Below are positions 4,449-41,333 of a stretch of 64,000 bases of DNA, piece after piece (position 1 is the first letter of the stretch; each line of letters starts with the position of its first letter). Where the stretch lies: the NCBI GenBank assembly GCA_046754225.1, contig JBHHVI010000004.1:147-64146 (forward strand). Reading direction: 5' to 3'. Made by a program: the position numbers and the translations under genes. The notes under the pieces are model-generated. The model ran no database searches and was not told where the DNA came from. It saw only the letters and a list, made by a program, of their open reading frames with translations. The DNA comes from Thermodesulfobacteriota bacterium (GTDB lineage Bacteria > Desulfobacterota > GWC2-55-46 > JADFVP01).

Positions 4449-5333
4449 ATGAACTCCATAGAAAAGATAAAGTCCCATTACAACTTCACCAACGGCGACG
4501 TGGAAAACCTCTTACGCCTCAAGCCCTTTATGGAGAAGCACCGCGGCGACTTCGTGGTGCAGTTCTATAACTATGTAAAGAACTTCGAGGAGGCCCACAG
4601 GTTCTTAAAGGACGAGGCCACCATAAAGAGGCACCAGGATGCCCTGAAGATCTGGTTCACGCAACTCTTTTCGGGAGAGTACGGCCCAAGGTATTTGGAG
4701 GGGCTCGAAAGGGTGGGCATGACCCATGTGAAGATAAACCTGCCCGCCCATTACGTCAACGCTGCCTTCCATTTCGTAAAGGATTACGTATACGAAAAGA
4801 TACAGGGCGAGATCAAAGACCCCTCGGAGCGCTCCTTTGTGCTCCGTTCCGTTTACAAGATAATCGAAATAAACCTCGACGTCTTCACGAGTTCCTACAT
4901 CGCCGAGGAAAAAAAGTTCTTCCTCTCGCAGAGGGTGGAGTCCTACCTCGTACAGGCGGCCAACCGTTTTGTCTACGGCATGAACCTCGTCCTCGTCCTC
5001 GGCCTCGTCGTTATCGGGGTCATGGTCGTGGTGCTCTTTGTCAACGACATGACCCACGTATTTGACGGCGATGTGGAAAAGGGGCTCCTCTCCACCCTTG
5101 GTACGCTCCTTATGCTATGGGTGGTAATCGAGCTTATGGACACGGAGATACGGCACCTGAAGGGCGGCAAATTCGCCATAAAGGTGTTTGTAAGCGTCGC
5201 CCTCGTGGCCATAATAAGAGAGATATTGATTACTTCGCTGAAGGGCGCCGAGGCGATGAACACCCAGCTTACGCTTATCGCGGCCGTGGCCGTGCTCGGA
5301 GGCGTTTACTGGCTCATCTCAAAGGTGGAGTGA
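4449..5333 (+). CDS. globin-coupled sensor (protoglobin-type) N-terminal domain fused to a PsiE-like multi-pass membrane domain
   Basis: The N-terminal ~170 aa match the globin-coupled-sensor globin fold pattern (FYNYV..., RYLEGLERVGMTHVKINLPAHYVNAAFHFV with a proximal His candidate). The C-terminal ~125 aa are hydrophobic and align with E. coli PsiE. Confidence 0.6.
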   Translation: MNSIEKIKSHYNFTNGDVENLLRLKPFMEKHRGDFVVQFYNYVKNFEEAHRFLKDEATIKRHQDALKIWFTQLFSGEYGPRYLEGLERVGMTHVKINLPAHYVNAAFHFVKDYVYEKIQGEIKDPSERSFVLRSVYKIIEINLDVFTSSYIAEEKKFFLSQRVESYLVQAANRFVYGMNLVLVLGLVVIGVMVVVLFVNDMTHVFDGDVEKGLLSTLGTLLMLWVVIELMDTEIRHLKGGKFAIKVFVSVALVAIIREILITSLKGAEAMNTQLTLIAAVAVLGGVYWLISKVE

Positions 5334-9471: not shown

Positions 9472-10284
9472 ATGGAAAGTCCAGGGTCCTACATCAGGAG
9501 GGAGAGGGAACACAGGGGTATCTCTCTCACGGCTGTGCATGAGGCCACACGTGTGCCTTTAAACAATCTCAAGGCCCTCGAGGAAGACAGGTTCGGCGAT
9601 TTGCCGCACCGGGCGTTTATAAAGGGTTATTTAAAGGCCGTTTGCAAGTACCTCGGACTTGATGAGACGGATACGCTTCTGCGTTACGAGATGTTTTTGA
9701 GGGAGACTTCTCTACGGGTGGTGCCGGCCGGCGAGGATGAACTGCCCGGCAAACCGTCCCCGGTCTCGATAAATTCAAAAAACATTGTCTCAGCCCTGGT
9801 CGTCTTCGGTGTGGTGATAATAATAGCGTTTTATTTTGTATTTTCCATGAAAACCACCGTCGAGACCGTCCCGGGCGACAGCGCCGCCCCGGCACCGGAG
9901 GCGCCAAGCCTGGAAAGGTTGGAAAAGGTAGAAGAGGCGCCTTCCGGGGATGCGGACCTCATCCCCGCCGGCGCGGAAAAAACAAATGAGGTCAAAGGCG
10001 AGACCGGCGGCGGCGAACACGTCCTGAGCATAACCGCCAGCGAGGATGTGTGGATACAGACGGCCCTTGACGGAGGAGAACCCTTTGAGGTACTGCTTAA
10101 AGAGGGCGAGAGTGTGGAGTGGAAGGCGAAGGATAATTTTTCGCTCGTCATAGGAAATGCCGCCGGAGTAAGCCTCACCATGGACGGATGGGAGTTTCCC
10201 CGGCTCGGTGAGCGCGGCAAGGTCGTCAGGCTGAGCCTGCCGCCGGCCGGCGCCGTCGATAAAGACGCCGGCCCCGTTGAGTGA
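9472..10284 (+). CDS. rodZ: cytoskeleton protein RodZ (HTH, TM segment, DUF4115)
   Basis: N-terminal XRE-type HTH, one TM helix (ALVVFGVVIIIAFYFVF), Pro/Ala-rich linker and a C-terminal DUF4115-like domain (VWIQTALDGGEPFEVLLKEGES...LSLPP). Confidence 0.8.
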   Translation: MESPGSYIRREREHRGISLTAVHEATRVPLNNLKALEEDRFGDLPHRAFIKGYLKAVCKYLGLDETDTLLRYEMFLRETSLRVVPAGEDELPGKPSPVSINSKNIVSALVVFGVVIIIAFYFVFSMKTTVETVPGDSAAPAPEAPSLERLEKVEEAPSGDADLIPAGAEKTNEVKGETGGGEHVLSITASEDVWIQTALDGGEPFEVLLKEGESVEWKAKDNFSLVIGNAAGVSLTMDGWEFPRLGERGKVVRLSLPPAGAVDKDAGPVE

Positions 10285-12726: not shown

Positions 12727-12817
12727 GGAGAGATGCCCGAGAGGCTGAAGGGGGCTGACTCGAAATCAGTTGTTCCGCTTTGCGGAACCGGGGGTTCAAA
12801 TCCCTCTCTCTCCGCCA
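12727..12817 (+). tRNA. tRNA-Ser (anticodon CGA)
   Basis: Cloverleaf with acceptor GGAGAGA/TCTCTCC, anticodon loop ctCGAaa, long variable arm (class II), T-loop TTCAAAT, 3' CCA encoded. Confidence 0.9.
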
Positions 12818-12879
12818 GATTTTTTCCGGCGCCCGAGGTGTCTCCGGAGTAAATGGACTTTAAGAAAGGTTTTTTGACT

Positions 12880-12970
12880 GGAGAGATGCCCGAGCGGCCG
12901 AAGGGGCACGACTGGAAATCGTGTGTACATTTATCGTGTACCGAGGGTTCGAATCCCTCTCTCTCCGCCA
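12880..12970 (+). tRNA. tRNA-Ser (anticodon GGA)
   Basis: Same acceptor and T arm as the upstream tRNA, anticodon loop ctGGAaa, long variable arm, CCA encoded. Confidence 0.9.
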
Positions 12971-12988
12971 GTTTGAGTTTAACTCGCG

Positions 12989-13122
12989 TTTACGGACGCC
13001 GCTGATAGCCGGGTCTTGCGCAATGGGAAAGTCTCAAACCCCGCCAGGTCCGGAAGGAAGCAACGGTAGCGGCTTAAACCCATGTGCCGCAAGGGTGCCT
13101 GGCTATCAGCGGCGTCCGTAAA
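12989..13122 (+). ncRNA. ffs: SRP RNA (4.5S RNA)
   Basis: Conserved domain IV motif CCAGGUCCGGAAGGAAGCAAC. The 22-nt 5' arm tttacggacgccgctgatagcc is perfectly complementary to the 3' arm ggctatcagcggcgtccgtaaa. Classic position upstream of dnaX. Ends are approximate. Confidence 0.9.
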
Positions 13123-16007: not shown

Positions 16008-16598
16008 ATGGAAAGTTTTTTAGAGGTAAGATGGCACGGCAGGGCCCAGCAGGGCGTTGTGACCGCCGCGAAGCTCCTCGGCGAGTCATGTTTGATGGCC
16101 GGCAATTTCGTGCAGGCCTTTCCCGAGTTCGGTCCCGAGAGGATGGGCGCGCCTGTAAGGGCCTATAACAGGGTCTCCGCCTCCCCGATAAAACTGCACT
16201 GTCAGGTGACAAACCCCGGGTTCATCCTTATAGCTGACCCCACTCTTATAGGTGGGTCGGCCGGGGTTACCACGGGCGCCCTCAAGGGTGCCTTATTCAT
16301 AATCAACACCCCGAAGCCGCCCGAAGAGATGCGCAAAGAGTTGAACCTTGCCGATAAGACCGCGAAGGTCTATACCGTGGACGCCGCGACCATATCGCTG
16401 GAGGCCATCGGCAGGTTCATGCCGAATACCCCGCTCCTCGGAGCGCTGGCGAGGGTTTCCGATATCGTCGATATCGAAGCCGTCATTAATAACTTCAAGA
16501 CCAATTATGCGAAAAAATACGGCCCCAAGATTATAGCAGGGAACGTAGAGGCCATGAAGAGGGGCTATGACGAGGTAAAGGGCATGGAGGTCAGCTGA
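16008..16598 (+). CDS. porG: 2-oxoacid:ferredoxin oxidoreductase gamma subunit (pyruvate/2-ketoisovalerate type)
   Basis: GRAQQGVVTAAKLL... FPEFGPERMGAPV signature of POR/VOR gamma. Confidence 0.85.
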   Translation: MESFLEVRWHGRAQQGVVTAAKLLGESCLMAGNFVQAFPEFGPERMGAPVRAYNRVSASPIKLHCQVTNPGFILIADPTLIGGSAGVTTGALKGALFIINTPKPPEEMRKELNLADKTAKVYTVDAATISLEAIGRFMPNTPLLGALARVSDIVDIEAVINNFKTNYAKKYGPKIIAGNVEAMKRGYDEVKGMEVS

Positions 16599-16681
16599 CT
16601 GAATTTGCCGCCCAGACCACACGGCAAAAAATAAAACCGTTGTTTACGAAGTCTTTTATCTACCGGGATAAGGAGTAATAT

Positions 16682-16963
16682 ATGAAAGAGAGAAAAGATT
16701 CCCCCATAGGGGGCGTTATAGATAAAGGCGGCACGGCCCATGAGTACTCCACGGGCGACTGGAGAAAATTAAGGCCCGTGCTCGACAAGGAGAAGTGCAT
16801 AAACTGCCTTATCTGCTGGGTAGTCTGTCCCGATTCCGCCGTTATTGCGGAAGAGGGCAAGATGGTGGGTTTTGACCTTGAGCACTGCAAGGGGTGCGGC
16901 ATATGCGCGACTGAATGCCCCGATAAGGTTACTGCCATAACAATGGAAAAGGAGGCAGACTGA
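16682..16963 (+). CDS. porD: 2-oxoacid:ferredoxin oxidoreductase delta subunit (2x[4Fe-4S] ferredoxin)
   Basis: Two CxxCxxCxxxCP motifs (CINCLICWVVCP, CKGCGICATECP). Confidence 0.85.
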   Translation: MKERKDSPIGGVIDKGGTAHEYSTGDWRKLRPVLDKEKCINCLICWVVCPDSAVIAEEGKMVGFDLEHCKGCGICATECPDKVTAITMEKEAD

Positions 16964-18192
16964 TGGCTGTAAATACCGCCGCAAAGACTCAGGTGGGGCT
17001 TACGGGAAATTCCGCTATAGCCCTCGCCATGAAGCAGATTAATCCCGATGTATGCGCCGCTTACCCCATAACCCCCTCAACGACGGTGATCGAGGAGTTT
17101 TCGAGTTACGTCGCAGACGGCGCCGTTGATACCGAGCTAATAAACGTGGAGAGCGAGCACTCGGCAATGAGCGCCTGTGTGGGGGCGAGCGCCGCGGGGG
17201 CGCGCGTCATGACGGCCACAAGCGCGCAGGGGCTCGCGCTCATGTGGGAGATGCTCTATATAGCCTCCGGCATGAGGCTCCCCATCATCCTTACAGACGT
17301 TAACAGGGCGCTGGCGGCACCCATAAACATCCACTGCGACCATTCCGACTCCATGGGCGCGCGCGACTCGGGCTGGGTACAGCTCTATTCCGAGACGGTC
17401 CAGGAGGCCTATGACAACCTCATACAGGCGGTAAGGATAGCGGAGAATAAAAAGGTCCTCCTTCCCGTCATGGTCTGCCTTGACGGTTTTATAACGAGCC
17501 ACGCCATAGAGAACACCACGCTCCTCGAGGATTCCGAGGTGCAGGGCTTCATCGGCGAGTACAGCCCCGAGCACATGCTCCTCGATACCGACAACCCCAG
17601 TACATACGGCGCCATGACCCTGCAGGACTACTACATTACCTTCAAACATCAGCAGTCAGAGGCTATCGCAAGGGCAAAGGACGTGGTTATGGGCGTCGGC
17701 AGCGAGTTCGGCGAGAAGTTCGGCCGGAGTTACGGCCTCTTTGAGGAGTACATGCTCGACGACGCCGAGGTGGCCATCGTCATACTCAACTCCGCCGCCG
17801 GCACCACAAAGGCCGCCATAGACGAATTGAGAAAAGATGGTAAGAAGGTAGGGCTCTTGAAGCCCCGGCTCTTCAGGCCCTTCCCATACAGGGAGATAGC
17901 GGAGGCGCTACAGGGCGTAAAGGCCGTGGCGTGCCTTGACAGGGCCGATTCCTTCAGCGGCTTCGGCGGTCCTCTCTTTACCGAAGTACGTTCCGCCCTC
18001 TATGAGTTAAAAGACCGCCCCAGGGTCATAAGCCGCATCTTCGGCCTCGGCGGAAGGGACTACAAGGTAAAGGACGCGGCGGGTGTCTTTGACGAACTCT
18101 TCAATATCTTGAAGACCGGCAAGGTGGATACATTAACAAAGTATATAACACTCTCCCCTCCGGAAGAATCCGCTCAGGGCGGGGGTTGTTAA
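16963..18192 (+). CDS. porA: 2-oxoacid:ferredoxin oxidoreductase alpha subunit
   Basis: POR/VOR alpha domain, 409 aa; start overlaps the porD stop. Confidence 0.85.
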   Translation: MAVNTAAKTQVGLTGNSAIALAMKQINPDVCAAYPITPSTTVIEEFSSYVADGAVDTELINVESEHSAMSACVGASAAGARVMTATSAQGLALMWEMLYIASGMRLPIILTDVNRALAAPINIHCDHSDSMGARDSGWVQLYSETVQEAYDNLIQAVRIAENKKVLLPVMVCLDGFITSHAIENTTLLEDSEVQGFIGEYSPEHMLLDTDNPSTYGAMTLQDYYITFKHQQSEAIARAKDVVMGVGSEFGEKFGRSYGLFEEYMLDDAEVAIVILNSAAGTTKAAIDELRKDGKKVGLLKPRLFRPFPYREIAEALQGVKAVACLDRADSFSGFGGPLFTEVRSALYELKDRPRVISRIFGLGGRDYKVKDAAGVFDELFNILKTGKVDTLTKYITLSPPEESAQGGGC

Positions 18193-18209
18193 GATAAAGG
18201 GGTAAGATA

Positions 18210-19145
18210 ATGGCGACTTTAAAAGAACTCTCAAAAAAAGAAGAACTCTTCAGCGGCGGTCACAGGCTCTGCTCCGGTTGCGGCATACCGCCCATAATAA
18301 GGCTCGTGCTGAGGACTTACGACACCCCGGTAATCGCCGCCAACGCGACGGGTTGCCTTGAGGTGGCCACGACCGTGTACCCTTACACGTCATGGAGGAT
18401 ACCGTGGATACATTCGGCCTTTGAGAACGCCGCCGCCACCATAAGCGGCGTTGAGACCGCTTACAGGGCCTTTAAGAAAAGGGGGAAGATACCCGCCGGC
18501 AAGAATATAAAGTTCGTGGCCTTCGGAGGCGACGGCGGTACATACGACATAGGGCTTCAGAGCCTGTCGGGGGCCCTTGAGAGGGGACATAATTTCCTCT
18601 ACCTCTGTTATGACAACGGCGCCTATATGAATACAGGCGTCCAGCGCTCAAGCGCCACGCCCTTTGGCGCCAATACCACCACAAGCCCGGCGGGTTCGGT
18701 AATACCGGGCAAGCAGGAGAGGAGAAAAGACCTTACGAGGATAGTCGTGGCTCATAATGTGGATTACGCGGCCCAGGCCTCTCCGCACAACTGGTCCGAC
18801 CTCGCGAAAAAGACGGAGAAGGCGATAAAGACCGAGGGTCCTACTTTTCTTAACATAATCTCGGCCTGCCCGCTGGGATGGTACACAAAGCCTGAGGACA
18901 GCATAAAACTTTCCAAACTCGCAGTCGACACATGCTACTGGCCCCTCTATGAGGTGGACCACGGCGTCCTGAAGGTCTCGTACAAACCCAGGGACAAGAG
19001 GCCCATAGCCGAATGGCTTAAACCACAGGGCAGGTTCAAGCATCTCTTCAAACCGGGCGCCGAAGGCATGCTTGAGGAGATACAGGCCCAGATAGATGCT
19101 GACTGGGAAAGACTCCTTGAATTCGACGGAAAAAAGGTCTACTGA
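18210..19145 (+). CDS. porB: 2-oxoacid:ferredoxin oxidoreductase beta subunit (TPP-binding)
   Basis: TPP motif GDGGTYDIG...CYDNGAYMNTG and an N-terminal Cys cluster for the proximal [4Fe-4S]. Confidence 0.85.
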   Translation: MATLKELSKKEELFSGGHRLCSGCGIPPIIRLVLRTYDTPVIAANATGCLEVATTVYPYTSWRIPWIHSAFENAAATISGVETAYRAFKKRGKIPAGKNIKFVAFGGDGGTYDIGLQSLSGALERGHNFLYLCYDNGAYMNTGVQRSSATPFGANTTTSPAGSVIPGKQERRKDLTRIVVAHNVDYAAQASPHNWSDLAKKTEKAIKTEGPTFLNIISACPLGWYTKPEDSIKLSKLAVDTCYWPLYEVDHGVLKVSYKPRDKRPIAEWLKPQGRFKHLFKPGAEGMLEEIQAQIDADWERLLEFDGKKVY

Positions 19146-26830: not shown

Positions 26831-26858
26831 TTGACATCACTTCTTTTTTCTGTATAAT
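26831..26858 (+). promoter_or_regulatory. near-consensus sigma70 promoter with upstream A/T-rich UP-like tracts
   Basis: TTGACA (26831-36), 16 nt spacer ending in TG, TATAAT (26853-58), preceded by ttttttataaaaaatatcaatttccta. Lies in a ~340 bp AT-rich spacer unlike the flanking GC-rich DNA. Confidence 0.65.
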
Positions 26859-26915
26859 AGGCATTAAGATTTAAAGCCTGGCGCTCAGGATGGGCCCGGG
26901 CTTTCAGGTGAAGAC

Positions 26916-26957
26916 GCCATTATATAACCATCCCGGTTATATACATGGCTTTTTTTT
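26916..26957 (+). terminator. intrinsic-terminator-like hairpin within the 5' leader of the cytochrome gene (candidate attenuator)
   Basis: gccat-tatataacc-atccc-ggttatata-c-atggc (14 bp stem with one bulged C) followed by TTTTTTTTgcTTTTTT. An upstream alternative pairing tggcg(26880-26884)/cgcca(26914-26918) overlaps the terminator's 5' arm. Confidence 0.5.
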
Positions 26958-27022
26958 GCTTTTTTAAATAAACCTCATTAATTCAAGCTATATCTATTAA
27001 TCAAACTGAAGAAGGGGGCCGC

Positions 27023-28048
27023 GTGAAGAGAAGATTGTTAACAGGCTTATTAGTCTTAACGGCAGCGCTCTTCATTAAAGCGGATATCTCCTCTTCAGCA
27101 ACGGGCACGCAGGGCGTCGCCGGGACCGTTGCCGCGTACACGAATGGTCTCGCCGCCAACGGCATCGTAGGCACAAGGCATAACATGGGCGCCTTCGGCG
27201 GCCCGATACGTACCAATGCCACAACTCAGGTATGCGTCTTCTGCCATACACCTCACCACACGAATCAATCTGCCGCCCCGCTCTGGAACAGGTCCACGGC
27301 CAACTCGACGAGTTATCAGGCTTACGGGTCTACCATAGGCGGCAGTAATATAACGACGGTAGACGGAGGCGCCTCCATCGCGTGCCTCAGTTGCCATGAC
27401 GGCGTCACCACCTTTGACAGCATTGTCAACGCCCCTGGAAACGGCGGGATTACCGCAGGCGGTTCCGACCAGCAATGGTCGTTTATAATGGCTGACGTAG
27501 GGTTGGACCTGGGTGCTTGGGACCATTTCGGCACTCCAGGTAATGAGAACGTCTGGTGTACTGCCTGTCACGGCACCGGAGGTTTTGCTCAAGGCCCGAA
27601 CACATGGCAGCGTCTCTCTATTGGCACGGACCTCACAAACGACCACCCCGTCTCGGTTACCTATTCCGGCAACACAAAGGCGAGCCTCAGGGCAAAGACT
27701 ACCGTACTGGGCACCATAGACCTTACGACCGGGCTCAGCAACACAAACTCATTAAGCGCATATTACCAGGCCATGACCCAGAACCGCTGGGCCGTAAACG
27801 GTTCCATCTCTGACACCGCCAATATCAGCGCTCTCTTGAGGAACGATAAGGTGGAGTGCAGTTCGTGCCACGACCCGCACTTCAAGAACCTCTCCTGGGA
27901 CGAGGCGGATGCCTCCTATGACGCCAATTATACAATCGGCGGCGCGAGCAAATGGTGCAGCGGGGACGCTTGTATCGACGGCCTCTTCTTAAGAAGGGTG
28001 GGCGGCAACACGGGCTCAGGCGTTTGCAGGACCTGCCACGATAAATAA
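27023..28048 (+). CDS. secreted pentaheme c-type cytochrome, Thr/Ser/Asn/Gly-rich, OmcS-like by motif pattern
   Basis: Sec signal peptide (MKRRLLTGLLVLTAALFIKA). Five CxxCH motifs: CVFCH, CLSCH, CTACH, CSSCH(DPH) and a C-terminal CRTCHDK*. Low-complexity T/S/N/G-rich composition and many N-x-S/T sequons. GTG start with RBS AGGGGG. Confidence 0.75.
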   Translation: MKRRLLTGLLVLTAALFIKADISSSATGTQGVAGTVAAYTNGLAANGIVGTRHNMGAFGGPIRTNATTQVCVFCHTPHHTNQSAAPLWNRSTANSTSYQAYGSTIGGSNITTVDGGASIACLSCHDGVTTFDSIVNAPGNGGITAGGSDQQWSFIMADVGLDLGAWDHFGTPGNENVWCTACHGTGGFAQGPNTWQRLSIGTDLTNDHPVSVTYSGNTKASLRAKTTVLGTIDLTTGLSNTNSLSAYYQAMTQNRWAVNGSISDTANISALLRNDKVECSSCHDPHFKNLSWDEADASYDANYTIGGASKWCSGDACIDGLFLRRVGGNTGSGVCRTCHDK

Positions 28049-28134
28049 TCAACCGCCGCTGGGCCTTGATACGGGGATAGACGCGGGGGCTTGATAAAGG
28101 CGGCGCCCTTAACAAGAAGATAAAAAAGTTTTGA

Positions 28135-28164
28135 AGGCCTCTCTTTCAAAAGAGAGGCCTTTTA
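28135..28164 (+). terminator. rho-independent terminator after the cytochrome gene
   Basis: AGGCCTCTCTT-tcaa-AAGAGAGGCCT followed by TTTT. Confidence 0.8.
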
Positions 28165-28280
28165 ATATTGTCTCCGCAGGGCTAACCCCTCTTGCCGGGC
28201 TTCATGGGCAAAATTCCGTGACGCTGTCCCCGTGGGGGGGGAATAAAAGACCACGGCCCGGAAAAGAGGGCTCAAAATGT

Positions 28281-28308
28281 TTGACTTGGCCCGTCTTTCT
28301 GTTATAAT
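28281..28308 (+). promoter_or_regulatory. sigma70 promoter with extended -10 for rpsU
   Basis: TTGACT (28281-86), 16 nt spacer, TGtTATAAT (28300-08); about 145 nt structured leader before rpsU. Confidence 0.55.
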
Positions 28309-28453
28309 CTTCAGGCCTAAAAGCCATACCGTGAGTAGTAAAGGCCCCTCCGGCCTGTTACCCTTTTACGGGCGCGAGGAGCCTTTTAACACCTGCATGG
28401 TGTAATATTCTCAGCAGGGAAAAAATTTTTTATCAGGAGGAGGTGTATTATTT

Positions 28454-34961: not shown

Positions 34962-35753
34962 ATGATGGAGAGCAAGATGAAGAAAGGTTTTGTAAACCGG
35001 TCCCCCTTGGTACTTGCCGTTTTAATTTTCTCGCTCATTATCAGCTCGAATACCTTCGCGGGCTCGAAGCATCACAAAGGACACTGGAGCTATGAAGGTG
35101 AGACCGGCCCCGAGCACTGGGGGGAACTCTCAGAGAAGTTCGAGGCATGTTCAAAGGGCAAGAGCCAGTCGCCCATCGATATCACGGCCGCGGCCGTGGG
35201 GGGCCGCGGTAAGGTAGAGTTCAACTACAGCCCCAGCCGGATAAAAATACTAAACAACGGCCACGCCATTCAGGTCAATTATGACAAGGGCAGCTATATC
35301 AAGGTGGGAGGCAAGAGATACGACCTGCTCCAGTTCCACTTCCACGCCCCCAGCGAGCACACCGTGGCCGGCAAACATTCCGATATAGAGATGCACCTCG
35401 TGCATAAAAGCAAGAAGGGTGAACTCGCCGTAGTGGGCGTCCTTATAGATAAGGGTGAGATGAACGGGGCTTACAAGGATGTATGGGCCGGTCTCCCCGA
35501 GAAAGAGGGCAAGGAAATGGCCCTAAAGGCGACGGTGAACGCTTTTGAACTTCTTCCGGCTAAAAAAATCTATTACAGCTATTCCGGTTCCCTGACCACA
35601 CCGCCATGTTCTGAGAACGTCTCCTGGTTCGTCATGAAGACTCCCGTTAAGCTCTCGGGGGACCAGATAAAGGCCTTCACGGAAATCATGCATGGCGACA
35701 ACAGGCCGACCCAGCCCCTTCACGGACGTAAGGTCACGCAGAGTAAAGATTAA
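34962..35753 (+). CDS. alpha-class carbonic anhydrase, secreted/periplasmic
   Basis: Signal peptide; QSPIDI, QFHFHAPSEH (zinc His) and SLTTPPCSE signature motifs. Confidence 0.9.
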   Translation: MMESKMKKGFVNRSPLVLAVLIFSLIISSNTFAGSKHHKGHWSYEGETGPEHWGELSEKFEACSKGKSQSPIDITAAAVGGRGKVEFNYSPSRIKILNNGHAIQVNYDKGSYIKVGGKRYDLLQFHFHAPSEHTVAGKHSDIEMHLVHKSKKGELAVVGVLIDKGEMNGAYKDVWAGLPEKEGKEMALKATVNAFELLPAKKIYYSYSGSLTTPPCSENVSWFVMKTPVKLSGDQIKAFTEIMHGDNRPTQPLHGRKVTQSKD

Positions 35754-40235: not shown

Positions 40236-41333
40236 TTATTTGGCGAACCTTTCCATTATCCGGCCGAGCAGGGCCGGAGCTATATCATCGACGGTCTCTT
40301 TCTCAGGGAGCAGATGGGGCTGGAAGGGGCCGTGTCTTCTCATATATTCGGCTAATTGACAGGCCGTACGCCTTGTCTCGTCAAAGCTCGGGTCGTCGAA
40401 CATGTCATGGGGGCCTATAAGGTGCCCGGAAGAGATCTGGAATCCGGCGCTTATAATCCTCATGGGGCCGTCAAAGCGCGCGAGGTTCGCCTCATAGAAG
40501 GGCACGGGTATAAGCGGGCCAAGGTGGCGGTGCCTGAGCCATCCCTTCGTGAGATAAGGGATGGTAAAAGGCTCAAGGGCCTCGCCTGTGGACGGAAAAC
40601 CCTCCTGACACCTTGAAATGATGACCGGGTTAAAGGCGCTCAGGGCCCTTTCGCCCTTACGGTTCAGCATGGCCGTTGAAATTTTGGCGGCCACTTCCCT
40701 GTCGTGGTTTCTGTAGACTTCGGTTATTACATATCTCGATGTAATGCCGGCGAGGGCAAGAAGCGTATAGATATCCCCCGGGTTCGAGAGCGTTATGTGG
40801 GTATTCTCCTTAATGTCCAGCAACCTGAAGGAAAACCCCTCGAACATGACCGGGTCGATGACAAGACCCGCGGTATTAAAGGGGTCGGCGAAGATCTTAT
40901 ATACCGGGAGGTTCCATGTGCCCGCCGCCGCCCTGTTGGCGATGAAGATGATAACGGGTTCGCTCTTTCTTTCCAGGAACTCCATCTCGATGATGTCAGG
41001 GCCGCTTTCAGGCAAAAGGCCTCCAGGAGAGGCCGGCCGCTTTTCAGGCCGGGAGAGTTTTAAATCCACGGCCTCTTCCACGCAGGCGTTGAATGTGTTC
41101 TGGGTGAGTTGAAGAATATCATCGCTGTCTTCGCCGCGGCGGTGGGTTATTACTATGTTTATCCTCGCGCCGCACCTGAGGACATGGTAGTCGACTATAA
41201 GGGCTTTCTCCTTTGCGTTAAAGAGCCTCTCCTTGGCGCAGTCGATTATGCCGGGATGGATGCTCGTTTGGCCCATGTATCCGCCGGGGTCAGCCGTTAT
41301 TACCGTGAGTGTGAGTTTTGACCGCTCTCCCAT
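40236..41333 (-). CDS. fbp: bifunctional fructose-1,6-bisphosphate aldolase/phosphatase (archaeal-type class V FBPase)
   Basis: LTLTVITADPGGYMGQTSIHPG, EMEFLERKSEPVIIFIANRAAAGTWNLPVYKIFADPFNTAGLVIDP, RYVITEVYRN, LFDDPSFDETRR, YMRRHGPFQPH: near-collinear with characterised archaeal FBP aldolase/phosphatases (from memory). Confidence 0.8.
   Translation of the reverse strand: MGERSKLTLTVITADPGGYMGQTSIHPGIIDCAKERLFNAKEKALIVDYHVLRCGARINIVITHRRGEDSDDILQLTQNTFNACVEEAVDLKLSRPEKRPASPGGLLPESGPDIIEMEFLERKSEPVIIFIANRAAAGTWNLPVYKIFADPFNTAGLVIDPVMFEGFSFRLLDIKENTHITLSNPGDIYTLLALAGITSRYVITEVYRNHDREVAAKISTAMLNRKGERALSAFNPVIISRCQEGFPSTGEALEPFTIPYLTKGWLRHRHLGPLIPVPFYEANLARFDGPMRIISAGFQISSGHLIGPHDMFDDPSFDETRRTACQLAEYMRRHGPFQPHLLPEKETVDDIAPALLGRIMERFAK

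Follow-up and report, generated by a model that had tools for sequence, protein, structure and literature searches.

A five-haem OmcE-family cytochrome gene between rpoD and rpsU in Thermodesulfobacteriota and the conserved structured RNA that precedes it

Few proteins that form cytochrome nanowires have been resolved at the atomic level, and how widely such wires are spread is an open question. A gene at positions 27023–28048 (+) of a 64,000-nucleotide stretch of DNA from a Thermodesulfobacteriota bacterium (assembly GCA_046754225.1, contig JBHHVI010000004.1), called the window below, raises this question again. Its protein is identical to ACE5EB_01345, a 'hypothetical protein' in an NCBI metagenome-assembled genome (MAG) of a Thermodesulfobacteriota bacterium. 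The initial annotation, made from the DNA letters, had described here an open reading frame (ORF) with a signal peptide, five CxxCH sites and a chain rich in Thr, Ser, Asn and Gly, and all of this was confirmed. It had also seen an OmcS-like pattern and suggested that the protein could be a shorter, as yet undescribed member of the cytochrome families that polymerise outside the cell. Is this cytochrome a nanowire subunit, and how is its synthesis controlled? We found that the gene product is almost certainly an OmcE-family c-type cytochrome, exported by Sec and carrying a fifth haem site. The gene is preceded by a conserved leader that is probably a real cis-regulatory RNA. For the whole chain of claims, the filament included, we estimate a probability of about 0.5.

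Using a single-sequence phmmer search of the PDB, we found that the window protein matches the OmcE nanowire 7TFS (E 3e-15) and the 16-chain structure 9YUQ (E 1e-11), and nothing besides these two below E = 0.9. A profile of 65 homologues matched the same entries at 8e-22 and 7e-17. The entry 9YUQ was deposited as 'putative multiheme cytochrome c'; judging from its 16 chains and its alignment with OmcE, we take it for the bundle of D. soudanensis OmcE described by Petersen et al. 2025 (bioRxiv 10.1101/2025.10.22.684050). The profile match to OmcE is made of four collinear stretches that span every haem-ligand motif: the N-terminal His with haems 1 and 2, GTDLxNDHPV, CxSCHxxH, and FLR...CxxCHxK at the chain end. 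When aligned in MAFFT with both OmcE proteins, the window protein is collinear end to end and has four additions. The first, an N-terminal extension, places about 25 residues ahead of His53, and the second adds about 50 (aa ~146–197) between haem 2 and GTDL. The loop that follows DHPV is longer, and some 30 residues that include a Cys-x4-Cys pair precede the C-terminal haem. The elements of the OmcE core, namely four CxxCH, four distal His and the CxxCH-x-K C-terminus, all appear in the same order. Across 121 superfamily sequences, conservation is complete or at least 90% at C71/C74/H75, C121/C124/H125, C279/C282/H283, C335/C338/H339, H53, H78, H208 and H286.

The predicted fold leads to the same family. 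AlphaFold2 (AF2), run without templates on the 121 superfamily-wide sequences, gave a model with a predicted local distance difference test score (pLDDT) of 77.9 and a predicted template modelling score of 0.79. The relatives of this fold with solved structures are the two OmcE nanowires only, of which 7TFS is later than the AF2 training data. A model from the 65 close homologues only (pLDDT 53.6) had no Foldseek match and was discarded. OmcE of Geobacter sulfurreducens (GSU0618, 7TFS) has the same motif order as the window protein (N-terminal His, CVFCHTPH, CxSCHDG, GTDLxNDHPV, CxSCHxxH, FLR...CxxCHxK), and it too has a Sec signal peptide and few charged residues, with Gly, Thr, Ser, Ala and Asn abundant. 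However, OmcE has four haems and the window protein five, and the window protein is about 110 residues longer (341 aa versus 232 and 218 aa in the two OmcE proteins). The D. soudanensis protein (DSOUD_2954, with 9YUQ taken as its structure) is collinear with it in the four stretches and shows the same differences. OmcE is known as a filament, whereas the window protein is known here from its sequence and predicted fold.

Thus, by sequence and predicted fold, the suggestion of an undescribed relative of the polymerising extracellular cytochromes was supported, with OmcE nanowires as the relatives with solved structures. The OmcS-like pattern did not hold up: the profile match to 6EF8 (E = 2) covered just 16 residues at a single CxxCH, and a single-sequence match was absent. 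OmcS (six haems, 407 aa) shares only the generic CxxCH and CxxCH-D-x-H-type motifs with the window protein. The haem chains of OmcS and OmcE are known to superimpose (PMC9473688). The profile comparison with nanowire families that the initial annotation had proposed matched OmcE at the values given above, and the scores of OmcS and OmcZ were below threshold. It had named periplasmic cytochromes such as NrfB or c554 as the contrary outcome, and these turned out not to be the nearest homologues. The Pfam NrfB-like model scored 13 bits against a cut-off of 27, the NCBIfam NrfB pentahaem model 10 bits against 184, and Cytochrom_C552 14 bits against 24.1; the MtrC, octahaem, decahaem and c554 models were all far below their cut-offs. 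Pfam and NCBIfam gave generic multihaem matches only (Paired_CXXCH_1 and Cytochrome_C7). For the ExtKL/c552-type pentahaem family of cable bacteria (PMC11976967), the named members differ (ExtKL, Gsu2801, c552), and the family and PDB searches show no link.

A word-indexed search returned 6,646 relatives, and the source name was 'hypothetical protein' for all matches listed. Among the clusters of a 50%-identity library, 3,308 matched at E ≤ 1e-3, 1,175 at E ≤ 1e-10 and 49 at E ≤ 1e-30. The relatives in species-representative genomes fall into three tiers. Tier 1 consists of five-haem proteins of 325–350 aa, and tier 2 of relatives with four haems that come from MAGs of a similar kind. Tier 3 lies further off, with four-haem OmcE-like proteins of about 30% identity in Rhodocyclales, Gallionellaceae, Magnetococcales, Nitrospirae, Aquificota and other groups. 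The five-haem proteins are a distinct clade without annotation in any source returned. The 49 clusters at E ≤ 1e-30 make up this clade, which belongs to an OmcE superfamily of over 1,000 clusters. The features of the window gene and its protein are the following.

27011–27018, +: ribosome-binding site GAAGGGGG, 4 nt 5' of the GTG, read from the sequence
27023–28048, +: precursor of the five-haem OmcE-family c-type cytochrome; GTG start, 341 aa, TAA stop
27023–27100, +: Sec-type signal peptide, aa 1 to ~20–26, without a lipobox Cys, read from the sequence
27179–27181, +: codon of His53, the N-terminal distal His; aligns with the TKHDL His of 7TFS and 9YUQ
27233–27256, +: haem-1 motif CVFCHTPH, aa 71–78, including distal His78; invariant; aligns with OmcE CVFCHTPH
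27383–27397, +: haem-2 motif CLSCH, aa 121–125; invariant; aligns with CMSCH and CLSCH of the OmcE proteins
27458–27613, +: insertion relative to OmcE, aa ~146–197, carrying the extra haem; absent from 7TFS, 9YUQ and the tier-2 four-haem relatives
27524–27526, +: distal His168, in the insertion
27557–27571, +: CTACH, aa 179–183, in the insertion
27623–27652, +: GTDLTNDHPV, aa 201–210, with the invariant distal His208; aligns with OmcE GTDLSNDHPV
27857–27880, +: CSSCHDPH, aa 279–286, with distal His286; third OmcE haem motif by conservation and alignment
27956–27973, +: Cys312-x4-Cys317 pair in the ~30-aa insertion before the C-terminal haem; specific to the five-haem clade
28025–28048, +: C-terminal haem motif CRTCH-D-K followed by the stop; conserved chain end
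28134–28163, +: intrinsic terminator after the ORF, a GGCCUCUCUUU/AAAGAGAGGCC hairpin (13-bp stem in RNAfold) followed by UUUU

The signal peptide begins with MKRR, continues with the 14-residue hydrophobic stretch LLTGLLVLTAALFI and ends in an Ala-rich cleavage region (KADISSSA). Residues 2–17 are helical in the AF2 model, and the MKRxL start is kept in homologues. The motifs CVFCH (aa 71), CLSCH (121), CTACH (179), CSSCH(DPH) (279) and CRTCH-DK-stop (335) make this the sole ORF of the window with more than one CxxCH. Across the 65 homologues four of them are invariant or nearly so, and the fifth occurs in about 60. This indicates that all five motifs are real and did not arise by chance. His53 is invariant in the 65 close homologues and also in the 121 superfamily sequences. 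In 119 of 120 close homologues and in 122 of 148 superfamily representatives the chain stops two residues past the last CxxCH, and the final residue is nearly always Lys; the OmcE filament proteins end in CHKK and CHSK (9YUQ), and the window protein in CHDK. Cys312 and Cys317, each at least 90% conserved in tier 1 and absent from tier 2 and OmcE, may form a disulfide. The mature cytochrome consists of 51% G+T+S+A+N and 12% K+R+D+E, compared with 14% and 11% charged residues in the filament proteins. It contains nine N-x-S/T sequons (residues 65–304) versus 4.7 ± 1.9 in shuffled sequences, a weak enrichment, as 42 of 2000 shuffles have nine or more. OmcE filaments are reported to be glycosylated, and this weak enrichment may be relevant to that. 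The region of the terminator downstream of the gene (28046–28175) has a z-score of −3.07.

Where does the additional haem sit? At its site, about 60 of the 65 homologues have one His 10–16 residues N-terminal of the CxxCH; a few lack the module or have a Cx3CH variant. Outside these ligands, no part of the protein varies more than the insertion (top-residue frequency 0.31–0.54), which fits a peripheral position of the fifth haem. The ligand count suits five bis-His haems, with five proximal His and H53, H78, H168, H208 and H286 as distal candidates. The window protein contains 11 His and 12 Cys, and one His is spare beyond this set: His79, largely conserved and not universal in the clade. Short homologues with five haems, from a MAG labelled Aquifex (Aquificota; 224 aa) and from Burkholderiales and Thiobacillus MAGs, have their additional CxxCH inserted at the same place. 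Four-haem proteins predominate among the 150 best cluster representatives, and the fifth motif occurs in only a few of them.

The idea of a five-haem OmcE-like protein is already known. Such proteins from uncultured bacteria were flagged as a possible new nanowire family, and in their AlphaFold3 models the insulated core chain is kept and the extra haem is solvent-accessible (Petersen et al. 2025, bioRxiv 10.1101/2025.10.22.684050). Pentahaem sequences are also mentioned among the OmcE homologues by Soares et al. (PMC11492766). The window protein shares with that five-haem group the OmcE-like sequence, the five CxxCH motifs and the origin from an uncultured bacterium. However, the published examples are OmcE-like in length, whereas the proteins of the window clade have about 325–350 aa. 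Additional here are a separate, longer clade with loops of its own, its conserved location among housekeeping genes and the leader RNA. The likeness to OmcZ (8D9M) is conceptual only. In OmcZ a main haem chain is accompanied by one solvent-exposed side haem per subunit (PMC9473688), which is the role proposed for the fifth haem of the window protein. OmcZ has eight haems and no ligation between subunits, and a sequence or fold relationship to the window protein was not detected.

The cytochrome gene stands alone between rpoD and rpsU, a position kept across the lineage. The whole 64-kb window consists of housekeeping genes: groEL, ndk, rlmN, dnaX, recR, the genes of pyruvate:ferredoxin oxidoreductase, mutS2, dnaG, rpoD, rpsU, acs, hisS, greA, lepA, arginine biosynthesis and others. 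The order porAB-nif3-mutS2-dnaG-rpoD-cytochrome-rpsU-acs-hisS is kept in eight distinct loci. Identity to the window in these loci is 47–54% for the cytochrome, 47–55% for MutS2 and DnaG and 60–65% for RpoD. Conserved synteny together with a divergence like that of MutS2 and DnaG indicates that the cytochrome gene is an old, vertically inherited resident. In two of the related loci, L001 (11897–12331, −) and L003 (11239–11676, −), an ORF of 144–145 aa without a family match lies between the cytochrome gene and rpsU, on the strand opposite to them; in the window, no ORF of at least 60 aa falls entirely inside the corresponding 400 bp (28049–28453).

A second conserved site has the order ligA-[1–5 tandem copies]-rplM-rpsI. 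Five tandem five-haem paralogues, mutually 62–86% identical, occupy it in locus L005 (GCA_016182655.1, contig JACPGB010000044.1, 9005–14118, between ligA and rplM-rpsI), with a single leader copy 5' of the first gene. Loci L010, L012 and L085 have a single cytochrome copy there. The tier-2 genes keep a SurA-like peptidyl-prolyl isomerase (PPIase) and a monohaem cytochrome downstream. Thus, in L015 (11334–16311) the four-haem genes are followed by the SurA-like PPIase, a monohaem cytochrome c, two FGE-sulfatase-domain proteins and a spermidine-synthase-like membrane protein, and the gene order of L025 is the same. The SurA-like PPIase, which also occurs 3' of an OmcE-like gene of the tier-3 locus L044, may be a shared folding or assembly factor. 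One MAG holds both a tier-1 gene (L010) and the tier-2 PPIase cluster (L015). A 669-aa protein beside a tier-2 gene was compared with a 777-aa protein of L044, both being putative barrels, and no similarity was found. In L023 (4371–10903) a four-haem tier-2 homologue lies directly 3' of a flagellar filament cluster, which was assigned from N-terminal sequences alone and consists of two flagellin-like ORFs and ORFs resembling FliD and FliS.

How is the gene expressed? The interval between rpoD and the cytochrome gene was aligned from nine syntenic loci. Two parts of it are conserved, the hexamers of the promoter and a block of roughly 86 nt, the leader, with the following elements in the window.

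26831–26858, +: sigma-70 consensus promoter, TTGACA (26831–26836), 16-nt spacer, TATAAT (26853–26858); 12/12 match
26872–26957, +: conserved structured 5' leader RNA, ~86 nt, from the nine-locus alignment and covariation
~26875–26904, +: P1 hairpin of the leader with the conserved apex GCUCAnGRnGGGC, including an invariant U-G pair
~26905–26915, +: conserved linker AGGYGAWG of the leader
26916–26949, +: intrinsic terminator stem GCCA...UGGC of the leader, followed by a U8 run (26950–26957)

The initial annotation had taken the consensus promoter as a sign of a structural protein made in high copy. The promoter stands: besides its perfect match, TTGAC[AT] and TAnAAT are found at the same distance 5' of the leader in 18 of 22 related loci. 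The conclusion drawn from it has to be qualified. Because a leader with an intrinsic terminator lies between promoter and ORF, expression of the cytochrome is probably conditional and switched by a ligand or a protein effector. The run after the terminator stem has seven or eight U across the loci. Using RNAalifold on the nine loci, we found compensatory changes in 14 of 23 pairs. A covariance model (R1) built from the nine leader sequences was then scanned over 1.29 Mb and gave 15 matches beyond the nine build sequences, that is, 24 in 22 sources, all on the same strand. Directly 5' of a tier-1 or tier-2 cytochrome gene lie 23 of the 24, the ligA-rplM site included. The exception (L018) is a weak match (19 bits, E 0.06) cut by the contig end and more than 3 kb 3' of the cytochrome gene. 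Within the 1.29 Mb there was no match upstream of tier-3 genes or elsewhere. In the alignment of all 24 sequences 89.5% of cells are paired versus 67.7% in shuffles, and 19 of 23 pairs change on both sides while all slid controls stay below 50%; this alignment was fitted to the model, and both figures lean slightly to structure. The leader ends 0–273 nt 5' of the start codon picked by script, and about 25–115 nt where the true MK(R/K) start is clear.

We read the leader, from its sequence and covariation, as a putative cis-acting attenuator or candidate riboswitch of the tier-1 and tier-2 cytochrome clade. It matches no family of Rfam 15 at gathering thresholds or at E up to 10. It is thus undescribed at least in Rfam 15 and may represent a new family of cis-regulatory RNA. 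A metagenome search with a degenerate leader pattern gave chance matches only, and the covariance model was passed by none of the 80 loci among the matches listed. Geobacter extracellular cytochrome genes are under the control of GEMM-I riboswitches that bind cyclic di-GMP or cyclic GMP-AMP. The arrangement is alike, in that a cytochrome gene linked to extracellular electron transfer has a structured leader ending in a terminator in front of it. The window leader does not match GEMM and is smaller, with one hairpin, a linker and the terminator. Whatever its signal, the leader is a concrete experimental handle on the regulation of such cytochromes.

Taken together, these data suggest the following mechanism. 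Transcription from the sigma-70 promoter would have to pass the leader terminator, with read-through only when the signal permits. The protein would be exported by Sec, receive its haems in the periplasm and stack head-to-tail as in OmcE, with the four core haems forming a continuous chain. At the interface, one haem would receive its last ligand from a His of the adjacent subunit. The candidate for this intersubunit ligand is His53, by its invariance and its alignment with OmcE. The fifth haem would stand out from the chain at its periphery, more open to solvent, as a site where electrons enter or leave. The fixed chain end and the invariant His53 are most simply explained by a retained head-to-tail interface. 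The low-charge composition, which is like that of filament proteins, also appears to count for a filament, and the arrays of up to five tandem paralogues resemble the gene families of filament subunits (flagellins, pilins). Still, we hold filament formation and an extracellular location tentatively, at a little under even odds. A bolder version, in which the protein would form a new branched OmcE nanowire with an insulated four-haem core and an exposed side haem, from a core, vertically inherited gene of an uncultured Thermodesulfobacteriota lineage without a porin cluster nearby, and a new riboswitch class, with a ligand that reports the redox or electron-acceptor state, would switch the gene on and off, seems to us rather unlikely. 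If the protein does polymerise, it would be a natural branched wire, between the insulated OmcE/OmcS type and the leaky OmcZ type. Moreover, nanowire genes would then need not adjoin secretion genes, and genome searches for extracellular electron transfer would have to be wider.

A number of observations weigh against the filament and its proposed regulation. As the nanowire family has been defined, the window protein misses two of its features, the four haems and the accessory gene cluster. OmcE lies in a cluster with genes of a large outer-membrane beta-barrel, beta-propeller lipoproteins and further multihaem cytochromes, and only homologues with such neighbours were counted as nanowire candidates; OmcE-like cytochromes are widespread, and not all of them need be nanowires (Petersen et al. 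2025, bioRxiv 10.1101/2025.10.22.684050). None of these partners, nor any of those in the canonical OmcE-like cluster described below (the PPIase and the large unassigned protein included), was found in the 64-kb window, nor within 10 kb on each side of the gene in the eight syntenic loci, nor at the ligA-rplM site. Unlike OmcE, the window gene has no porin, beta-propeller or cytochrome genes next to it, and a structured RNA leader lies upstream of it. The canonical OmcE-like cluster of tier 3, L044, does carry partner genes: three OmcE-like genes, three NHL beta-propeller proteins, the SurA-like PPIase, the 777-aa protein, which has no family match, and c7-type cytochromes, a set that agrees with the published description. 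Two of the four additions, the one of about 25 aa ahead of His53 and that of about 30 aa ahead of the C-terminal haem, lie near the two presumed interfaces, and His79 could fill the open haem site within the same subunit. The loops that bundle the D. soudanensis filaments are not conserved even among OmcE homologues (Petersen et al. 2025). For the leader, an antiterminator pairing was not found: the duplex of P1 with the 5' arm of the terminator has a mean of −9.1 kcal/mol versus −9.5 kcal/mol in shuffles.

Several of these points would be explained if the protein were a monomeric OmcE-fold cytochrome that does not polymerise and shuttles electrons in the periplasm between inner- and outer-membrane redox partners. 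The only targeting signal seen is the Sec signal peptide, the secretion and anchoring partners are missing at all conserved sites examined, the gene has been inherited vertically amid housekeeping genes and diverges about as MutS2 and DnaG do, and 11 His for five haems leave one to spare. Such a carrier would also be in line with the view that not every OmcE-like tetrahaem cytochrome need be a nanowire (Petersen et al. 2025). However, both relatives with solved structures are filaments, and the very low charge and the coil-dominated composition rich in Thr, Ser, Asn and Gly are those of filament proteins. A higher charge is usual in periplasmic carriers, for example PpcA and cytochrome c3. The conserved chain end and the invariant N-terminal His, moreover, point to a retained interface, and the partners could sit elsewhere in the genome, as the MAG with both a tier-1 gene and the tier-2 PPIase cluster illustrates. 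We consider the periplasmic carrier a possible alternative, at odds well short of even. The spare His79 leads to another idea, a monomeric or capping cytochrome of the cell surface, in which this residue fills the open haem site and the protein serves as a terminal reductase or as a 'stopper' of filaments made of the four-haem paralogues. An OmcE-like stopper with a His count one above twice the haem count has been proposed (Petersen et al. 2025). The window protein, with 11 His for five haems, has this count, and genomes of the lineage also hold four-haem tier-2 paralogues. Yet G. sulfurreducens OmcE has nine His and polymerises, so that the His count does not discriminate. A consensus promoter and up to five tandem copies are ill-suited to a minor capping component, and His79 is not universal in the clade. 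We regard the capping role as very unlikely.

The leader, too, can be read in another way, as an independent small RNA gene, with the cytochrome transcribed only by read-through or from another start. The element has its own consensus promoter and a strong terminator, and the alternative antiterminator structure was not detected. However, the position of nearly all its matches directly 5' of a clade cytochrome gene, on the same strand and at several genomic sites, is hard to reconcile with this, and in the window no further promoter-like site lies between the element and the ORF. Two complete leader copies stand in tandem (9733–9815 and 9816–9903 of L016) 5' of one four-haem paralogue. Tandem copies are known for riboswitches, and this also argues against a small RNA gene, which we consider unlikely. 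The cis-regulatory reading of the leader is the one that we prefer.

The remaining genes of the window allow a few minor observations. At 12727–13107 (+), just 5' of dnaX, lie two 88-nt tRNA genes and a small signal recognition particle RNA gene. A single ORF at 4449–5333 (+) joins a protoglobin domain (residues 3–155) to a PsiE membrane domain (179–292), a fusion like that of a haem sensor. The window also encodes the subunits of pyruvate:ferredoxin oxidoreductase (16008–19145, +) and a fructose-1,6-bisphosphatase of the FBPase_3 family (40236–41333, −), which together point to an anaerobic, possibly autotrophic metabolism. Finally, a gene of a eukaryotic-type (alpha) carbonic anhydrase is found at 34962–35753 (+), and a gene with 62% identity occupies the same position in L006.

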